Below are positions 10,866 through 10,995 of a DNA stretch of 64,000 nt, one piece after another. The first letter of the stretch is position 1. Each line of letters begins with the position of its first letter. The stretch lies in the sequence record PQ390715.1; one strand, 5' to 3'. Position numbers and translations under genes: made by a program. This DNA comes from Escherichia phage SHEFM2K. Under the pieces are notes generated by a model. That model was given only the letters and a program-made list of their open reading frames with translations, was not told the origin of the DNA and did not search any database.

Positions 10866-10894
10866 TTGACAAGTGCATCCAGTACTGGCATAAT
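10866..10894 (+). promoter_or_regulatory. Plus-strand promoter TTGACA-N17-CATAAT
   Basis: Consensus hexamers on plus strand, opposite to surrounding genes. Confidence 0.5.
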
Positions 10895-10901
10895 TACTAC
10901 A

Positions 10902-10995
10902 TCAAGACGAAACAGTCACTAACCCACCGGGTGCCGAGATCCGTCTATTAAATGATTCAGTACTAAAAAAAGAAAGGGGATCAATTGATCCCCTC
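10902..10995 (+). ncRNA. Candidate small RNA (about 95 nt) containing motif M
   Basis: Bounded by plus-strand promoter and palindromic terminator; no ORF. Confidence 0.3.
10965..10994. terminator. Bidirectional terminator (perfect palindrome GGGGATCAATTGATCCCC, A/T runs both sides)
   Basis: Perfect 18-bp palindrome; T-rich on minus strand side. Confidence 0.6.

Follow-up and report, generated by a model that had tools for sequence, protein, structure and literature searches.

Structured RNA near early promoters, with a short hairpin, is known from the nut sites (boxA plus boxB) of lambdoid phages and from the put RNA of HK022, and in the boxB of phage phi21 CUAACC is followed by GGGUG. In the RAT/terminator switches of the BglG/SacY/LicT type, an antiterminator hairpin overlaps a terminator hairpin, and phages and prophages also make small RNAs, such as lambda OOP, the PR' 6S transcript and the prophage anti-sRNAs AgvB and AsxR. 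Non-coding RNAs are likewise encoded by the jumbo phage PA5oct (PMC7318152). In T4-type phages, the PeSL cassettes join a terminator-like stem-loop (A3G3-loop-C3T3) to a near-consensus sigma70 early promoter; they are repeated among small ORFs of no known function in plastic early regions, and have been proposed as points of recombination (PMC2839356, PMC4122927).

How the 350-kb RaK2-like phages take over the cell is little understood, several of them have been proposed for therapy, and their early region is annotated almost wholly as hypothetical proteins. For this region only RpoD-like promoters with UP elements are mentioned in the literature searched on RaK2-like phages (PMC5259590), in which we found neither a promoter-level or RNA-level description of the promoter-plus-module units reported here nor transcriptome or expression data for any RaK2-like phage. 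In the present study, we describe modules, each coupled to a promoter, which are conserved, occur in the terminal repeat only and are under structural constraint as RNA; judged from their sequences, they appear to form an RNA family not described before, within a known general kind.

The window, i.e. the whole 64,000-nt stretch of Escherichia phage SHEFM2K DNA (PQ390715.1) that was analysed, is of the Asteriusvirus (RaK2-like) jumbo coliphage type. The ∼1 kb around the unit considered first below, unit D, has 99.5% identity with Escherichia phage phAPEC6 and 94–97% identity with ∼35 further Asteriusvirus genomes of ∼350 kb each. In fEgEco12 and vB_Ec-M-J the matching DNA lies 4–6 kb from the left end, within a ∼21-kb direct terminal repeat (PMC13070987). 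Mapped in this way, positions 1–15,700 of the window would be part of such a repeat with its small early genes, and the physical genome end is estimated to lie near position ∼15,700, with an uncertainty of a few hundred bases due to indels; the coordinate offset to phAPEC6 (MK817115), for instance, shifts by 247 bp between positions 50 and 10400, so the window has an indel relative to that genome. About 40 small minus-strand genes occupy positions 1–14,440, nearly each with a sigma70-type promoter of its own and many with their own terminator. The terminal repeat carries the early genes and is present in two copies per virion; by analogy with T5, it probably enters the cell first.

Several features of this setting were recorded along the way. 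Pfam matches among the early proteins comprised a weak protein-kinase match, a GNAT acetyltransferase, a DksA/TraR C4 zinc finger and two DUF7249 paralogues (minus-strand genes 50–634, 3760–4116, 4180–4437, 11645–11884 and 13686–13925). Minus-strand leaders of early genes (10758–10805, 11252–11275 and 6280–6300) share the start CATCAAG or CATCGAG and carry a hairpin GGGGAG(A)-N-CTCCCC immediately before the ribosome-binding site; this leader is also found in Hallingskeid and Kae01. A gene-free stretch of ∼1.9 kb (14440–16380) contains the inferred genome end; GGGGAACTATC-like repeats occur at 13947–15624 (6 versus 0.5 expected), runs of TTCAGTACTATTA are also present in the gene-free stretch, and both are possibly packaging or end-recognition signals. 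A strong outward-facing promoter, TTGACA-N17-GATAAT (15107–15135, plus strand), lies ∼600 bp from the inferred end with no RNA module downstream. Further along, 13 head-to-tail plus-strand ORFs of ∼300–430 aa (21291–35853) are possibly paralogues, and the terminator hairpin ATGCCAGTA-CTTGA-TACTGGCAT follows at least one of them (the one ending at 23648).

The preliminary description had pointed to plus-strand promoters that face the minus-strand genes, the first of them followed by a palindromic bidirectional terminator and a short ORF-less transcript. The promoters at 10866–10894, 12812–12840 and 14767–14794 are indeed present, each scoring 11/12, while the one at 14982–15009 has a TG-extended perfect TATAAT and a module copy behind it, but only a weak −35 (TTGCTT). 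Plus-strand sites of at least 11/12 number 5 in positions 1–16,500, compared with 0.37 ± 0.58 expected per strand (300 first-order Markov simulations, maximum 2 sites). The unit at the first of these promoters, unit D, is composed as follows, where P1, P2 and P3 denote the helices of its RNA module:

10866–10894, plus strand: promoter, with −35 TTGACA at 10866–10871, an N17 spacer containing CAGTACTG, and TG-extended −10 CATAAT at 10889–10894
10896–10954, plus strand: RNA module, covariance-model match of 43.5 bits
10906–10917, plus strand: P1, GAC[GAAACA]GTC
10922–10932, plus strand: P2, ACCC[ACC]GGGT
10929–10933 with 10942–10946, plus strand: alternative P3, GGGTG paired with CGTCT
10959–10964, no strand assigned: AGTACT site between module and terminator, invariant in the 4-genus alignment
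10976–11006, plus strand: bidirectional intrinsic terminator, palindrome GGGGATCAATTGATCCCC at 10976–10993, then a T-rich tail

Transcription is predicted to start at the A at ∼10901, and the predicted transcript (∼10901–11006) contains no ORF longer than 4 codons, in keeping with the preliminary description. The palindrome GGGGATCAATTGATCCCC is scored as terminator-like on both strands, the better T-run being that of the minus strand, where it also ends the convergent gene 11000–11251. Among orthologues, the terminator stem shows compensatory change (GGGGATC/GATCCCC versus GGGGAG/CTCCCC), and the −35/−10 core and CAGTACTGGCATAAT hardly vary across the orthologues from 10 phages. Unit D thus has the anatomy of a terminator-bounded sRNA gene, with its own promoter, no ORF and an intrinsic terminator in the same orientation. 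Orthologues with ∼80% identity are present in Erwinia phage Hallingskeid and in Klebsiella phages RaK2, K64-1 and Muenster, while Salmonella phage Munch and Klebsiella phage fENko-Kae01 match the core; in each of them the nucleotide similarity stops at the unit borders without reaching the flanking genes. A host origin was rejected, as the 81-nt core had no match in 5,426 E. coli genomes; nothing similar to it was found in E. coli chromosomes.

Unit D is one of nine units in the window that share a layout, in which the RNA starts at ‘CAT’, followed by a small hairpin and then RCCC-N3-GGGTGC. Five are on the minus strand (A, B, C, F and H) and four on the plus strand (D, E, G and I):

2670–2758, minus strand: unit A, −35 TTGACT (2751) within a terminator-like hairpin at 2758–2731, −10 TATTAT, module 2728–2670 (56.1 bits)
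4676–4764, minus strand: unit B, promoter 4764–4736, module 4733–4676 (44.1 bits), upstream of the promoter of gene 4180–4437
6341–6434, minus strand: unit C, hairpin-embedded promoter 6434–6399 (−35 at 6427), module 6398–6341 (55.5 bits)
12812–12893, plus strand: unit E, promoter 12812–12840, module 12835–12893 (39.1 bits), convergent with F
12899–12984, minus strand: unit F, promoter 12984–12956, module 12955–12899 (53.2 bits), convergent with E
14767–14854, plus strand: unit G, promoter 14767–14794 (TTGACT-N16-TATAAT), module 14796–14854 (33.8 bits), convergent with H
14860–14948, minus strand: unit H, promoter 14948–14919, module 14918–14860 (36.2 bits)
14982–15069, plus strand: unit I, promoter 14982–15009 (TTGCTT, TG-TATAAT), module 15011–15069 (33.6 bits), pointing to the genome end
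11–38, minus strand: promoter within a hairpin, from a tenth unit with its module immediately outside the window, before position 1

The tenth module was located in the phAPEC6 sequence (locus L105, 11953–12010, 61.5 bits). Two of the units that had been placed on the plus strand, at 2665–2745 and 6352–6438, proved to be minus-strand copies, with promoters at 2751–2723 and 6427–6399 and modules of 56 and 55 bits, and the minus-strand copies at 4764–4676, 12984–12899 and 14948–14860 had not been listed. Running against the flow of genes therefore does not define the set, since 5 of the 9 copies run with the genes. The suggestion of bounded mini-transcripts holds for the anatomy of unit D but does not extend to most co-directional copies, which have no clear terminator and run into the promoter of the next gene: in A, B, C and F that promoter lies 45–85 nt past the module with no clear terminator between (∼64 nt past GGGTGC in unit A). 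Unit H also has its own promoter, no ORF and a terminator in the same orientation, here formed by P3 (AGGGTGCG-GGAG-TGTATCCT) followed by T7. The promoter of E is of the same type as that of D (TTGACA-N17-CATAAT with upstream TG). The hairpin AAAGGGATTGACTCCGGTCAGTCCCTTT (minus strand; 11–38, 2731–2758 and 6407–6434) carries −35 TTGACT in its stem with TATTAT after it, whereas B, D, E, F, G, H and I have no such stem-loop at the promoter. The DksA/TraR-like gene 4180–4437 lies just downstream of unit B.

Searching with a covariance model of the family gives exactly nine matches in the 64-kb window, all within 2670–15069, the next match having E = 0.36; in the adjoining phAPEC6 repeat before the window start there are two more copies and none elsewhere in that 12.4-kb stretch. 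The family thus occurs in the terminal repeat only, each repeat holding 11 copies or more. Copies in other phages were collected by an exact-pattern scan of IMG/VR followed by the covariance model (915 kb searched), which gave 126 matches (109 distinct) in jumbo-phage contigs, several of 345–378 kb, from at least six related phage groups; none was obtained on ∼70 unrelated contigs pulled in by the loose pattern. The module is conserved in phages of Escherichia, Klebsiella, Erwinia, Salmonella, Cronobacter and Yersinia. Nearly all motif copies in the four genomes sampled best lie 25–50 nt downstream of a TTGNNN...TANNNT promoter, and across copies the orientation of the module relative to its promoter is constant and its distance from the transcription start fixed. 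Outward copies at the 3′ end of a convergent gene, hereafter D-type, comprise D and five in RaK2, Hallingskeid and Kae01; in these six copies from four genera the module is followed by AGTACT and then by a strong bidirectional terminator, a layout which is the classical anatomy of a ∼100-nt sRNA gene. Convergent, overlapping pairs of modules are formed by E/F and G/H, and further convergent pairs occur in other genera. Known RNA families did not account for the units: with Rfam 15 there was no gathering-level match anywhere in the window, the five weak matches at E ≤ 5 over 2500–15300 overlap no unit, and ARAGORN found no tRNA or tmRNA gene across the 64 kb.

The structural evidence for the module is strongest for P1 and P2. 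P1 is a stem of 3–5 bp with a purine-rich loop of 6–8 nt (AGAACAA, AGAUAA, GAGAAA, GCGAAA or GGACACAA), and more than 20 different stem sequences close similar loops; in orthologues of unit D it is GAC/GTC in Asteriusvirus and GCC/GGC in RaK2 and Hallingskeid. In a model-made alignment, 62% of the P1 cells are paired, compared with 39.7 ± 2.1 in shuffles. Double-sided changes number 128 versus 68 ± 7 in shuffles, and the covariation score is 0.48 versus 0.18, none of 500 shuffles reaching the former; slid controls gave 0.03–0.23. The length of the best hairpin is barely above that of shuffles (3.88 versus 3.59), the position-specific covariation test being the informative one, and a strand test of G-U versus A-C (40 versus 50 in the model-made alignment) was uninformative. 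P2, RCCC-N3-GGGU, lies within the invariant RCCC-N3-GGGUGC and was predicted independently by RNAalifold. At its closing pair R35-U46, 59 of the 126 matches have A-U and 58 have G-U, the innermost pair shows a compensatory change from C-G to U-A in three rows that represent two distinct copies, and its three C-G pairs almost never vary. Because P2 is invariant while P1 covaries freely, these data suggest that the sequence of P2 itself is read, by sequence-specific recognition.

P3 pairs the invariant GGGUGC with a downstream YRYCY, mostly by G-U pairs, and is paired in 88.6% of cases compared with 31–65% when slid. This evidence is weaker than that for P1 and P2, because with one strand invariant, transitions on the other keep the pairing automatically, and a conserved sequence motif could give the same one-sided pattern. 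P2 and P3 are mutually exclusive, as GGGU is used by both, and thermodynamics favour P2 (mean pair probability 0.53 versus 0.16). At least five T in the 8 nt past P3 were found in only 10 of 109 copies; as in a few other copies, P3 of unit H makes a canonical terminator with a U-run. Folding of single sequences is unremarkable (z-scores −1 to −1.8). The alternation of A-U and G-U in P2 and the G-U pairs of P3 make sense only in RNA of the strand read from the promoter, and the conservation and covariation of unit D argue for an RNA that is made and under selection.

Three further candidates were rejected. A mini-ORF, with GGGUG as ribosome-binding site followed by RUG-UAU-CUA-UAG, has G at the third position of the start codon in only ∼57% of copies; AUC or GUC stands there in many of the others, and the reading frame beyond is not preserved. 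An enclosing helix, in which the P1 region (AGAUA or AGACG) would pair with a 3′ strand (UAUCU or CGUCU), is present in some minimum-energy folds, but shows no covariation, and the same P1 occurs with different 3′ strands. In a closing helix of 5′ AGUAC with downstream AGUACU, the 5′ copy would lie upstream of the predicted start.

At the DNA level the AGTACT sequence stands out. The palindrome CAGTACTG occurs 61 times in the window compared with 0.9 expected (e.g. 10880–10887, 12788–12795, 14548–14608 and 15412–15751). In unit promoters AGTACT lies in the spacer beside the extended −10 (CAGTACTGGCATAAT), in ordinary early-gene promoters it comes immediately before the −35 (AAAGTACTTGCAA), and it follows the modules in 74% of copies versus 35% background, with a sharp peak 0–10 nt past the model end; a phage factor, or one associated with the polymerase, probably uses it as a DNA site. 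In other genera, palindromes matching the E. coli Fur-box consensus at 15–17 of 19 positions cluster near genome ends (locus L096, 14804–16162, in RaK2; L097, 19378 and 19708, in Hallingskeid; L098, 556, in fENko-Kae01; and loci L002, L012, L072 and L090), and the position of several is exactly that between two convergent modules. The window has no site within 3 mismatches of this related-phage palindrome and one weak match to the Fur consensus, far from the units.

We tentatively favour, at a little short of even confidence, a reading in which the RNA works in trans through a bound protein, whose recognition targets are the P1 loop and the invariant P2, and in which dosage matters. Unit D (10866–11006, plus strand) would then be a self-contained early gene for a ∼100-nt non-coding RNA, read by the host sigma70 RNA polymerase, with one copy of the structured module in its first ∼55 nt. 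The host polymerase would make large amounts of module RNA within minutes of infection, this RNA being likely among the most abundant early products, and would thereby supply an RNA that may act stoichiometrically on a protein of the host or the phage. Importance of dosage would account for the many near-consensus promoters. From their layout we infer that D-type copies are stand-alone small RNAs, while in co-directional copies the module may head a longer transcript. Points against this reading are that most co-directional copies have no convincing terminator and would suit a leader as well, that single sequences fold unremarkably, and that no RNA-binding protein was recognised among 20 early proteins.

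The module could, as the main alternative, be a cis-acting leader that controls read-through in the manner of nut, put or RAT elements, a possibility we regard as unlikely but worth carrying along. Factor-stabilised P2, together with P1, would compete with P3 as a terminator or pause hairpin, and polymerases would either stop early or read on, into early genes from co-directional copies and into antisense of early genes from outward ones, which would time the expression and shut-off of early genes. The fixed distance of the module from the transcription start and the mutually exclusive use of GGGU by P2 and P3 fit this, as do the P3 terminators of unit H and a few other copies and the lack of any other terminator between co-directional copies and the next gene. 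P1 is also boxB-like, with a short stem and a GAGAAA, GCGAAA or AGAACAA loop, and CUAACC, the boxB hexaloop of phi21 (PMC12550061), is present in about a third of copies. On the other hand, P3 is rich in G-U pairs, predicted to be weak and usually without a U-tract, and boxA-like elements (CGCUCUUUA-like) near units are absent, matches to YGCTCTTTAA with at most one mismatch being at chance level (8 versus 8.7 expected, none near a unit). Moreover, no RNA-binding or antiterminator family (N-like, Q-like or CAT/PRD) was found by Pfam among 20 early proteins, a search that would miss short arginine-rich peptides. The copies conserved in synteny are, moreover, those of D-type, which point at a strong terminator and have nothing but antisense DNA behind it.

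A riboregulator that works by base-pairing is a clearly improbable third reading. In this case YURRCCCA..GGGUGC, or the A/U-rich tail of D-type RNAs, would pair with some conserved RNA of host or phage, perhaps assisted by Hfq or ProQ. D-type RNAs do combine a hairpin at the 5′ end with an A/U-rich stretch that is single-stranded and a terminator whose tail is rich in U, the 12–14 invariant nucleotides could act as a seed, and GGGUG is similar to a Shine–Dalgarno sequence, as is GGAG(G), often present in the P3 loop. The same invariant nucleotides are, however, largely locked in P2, no target was identified, most copies are without the U-tailed terminator typical of Hfq-dependent sRNAs, and the many near-consensus promoters suggest dosage rather than catalytic regulation.

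Very doubtful, finally, is a role at the level of DNA or transcription with the RNA incidental, as PeSL-like mobile recombination cassettes or as insulating outward promoters that collide with read-through polymerases, in which CCC-N3-GGG and AGTACT would be protein-binding DNA sites: PeSL-type hairpin-embedded promoters in A, C and the 11–38 unit (PMC4122927), the early region being a mosaic of small ORFs each with promoter and terminator, the over-represented and promoter-positioned AGTACT, and the place of unit D exactly between a terminator and the next promoter are in its favour, but a DNA site leaves unexplained the double-sided covariation of P1, the A-U/G-U alternation and G-U pairs that are meaningful only in RNA of the transcribed strand, and the constant orientation of module to promoter.

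With ∼11 copies per terminal repeat, a virion would carry ∼22. We also considered, as something possible rather than probable, that RaK2-like giant phages have in this module a novel type of promoter-proximal riboregulator of their own, either a P2/P3 read-through switch triggered by a factor or a massively expressed RNA decoy. If true, the switch would convert the host polymerase to read-through, thus timing early-gene expression and antisense shut-off, and the decoy would disable a host RNA-binding factor or defence in the first minutes of infection. The module offers a handle for experiments and would add a family to RNA catalogues, and its compact promoter, module and terminator are well-defined genetic parts.

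Compared with known systems, the predicted D-type RNAs resemble OOP, 6S, AgvB/AsxR and the PA5oct ncRNAs in being short, ORF-less, read from a phage promoter, ended by an intrinsic terminator and sometimes antisense. They differ in that many paralogous copies make up the family, all with the structured module at the 5′ end and all in the terminal repeat, and Rfam scans revealed no sequence or Rfam relationship to known phage small RNAs. The likeness to RAT switches lies in P2 overlapping the 5′ strand of P3 and in the real terminator formed by P3 of unit H; the difference is that P3 is otherwise weak, mostly has no U-tract, and has no CAT/PRD antiterminator beside it among the 20 early proteins matched to Pfam. 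With nut and put the module shares a short-stemmed P1 with a purine-rich loop, and in some copies CUAACC followed by GGGUG; CUAACC sits there in the linker and not in a hairpin loop, and we treat the likeness to phi21 boxB as a lead, not as a sign of membership. The units are, moreover, without boxA or a recognisable N-like protein, the P1 loops of 6–8 nt are not GNRA-like pentaloops, there are more than 10 copies instead of two nut sites, and the copies point both ways, including toward gene-less DNA. The nearest described elements are the PeSLs, as units A, C and 11–38 likewise join a stem-loop to a sigma70-like promoter and are repeated in a plastic early region. However, many units of the window (D, E, F and B) have no upstream stem-loop, and whereas the definition of PeSLs includes no conserved structured transcript, here the transcribed module is the conserved, covarying part.
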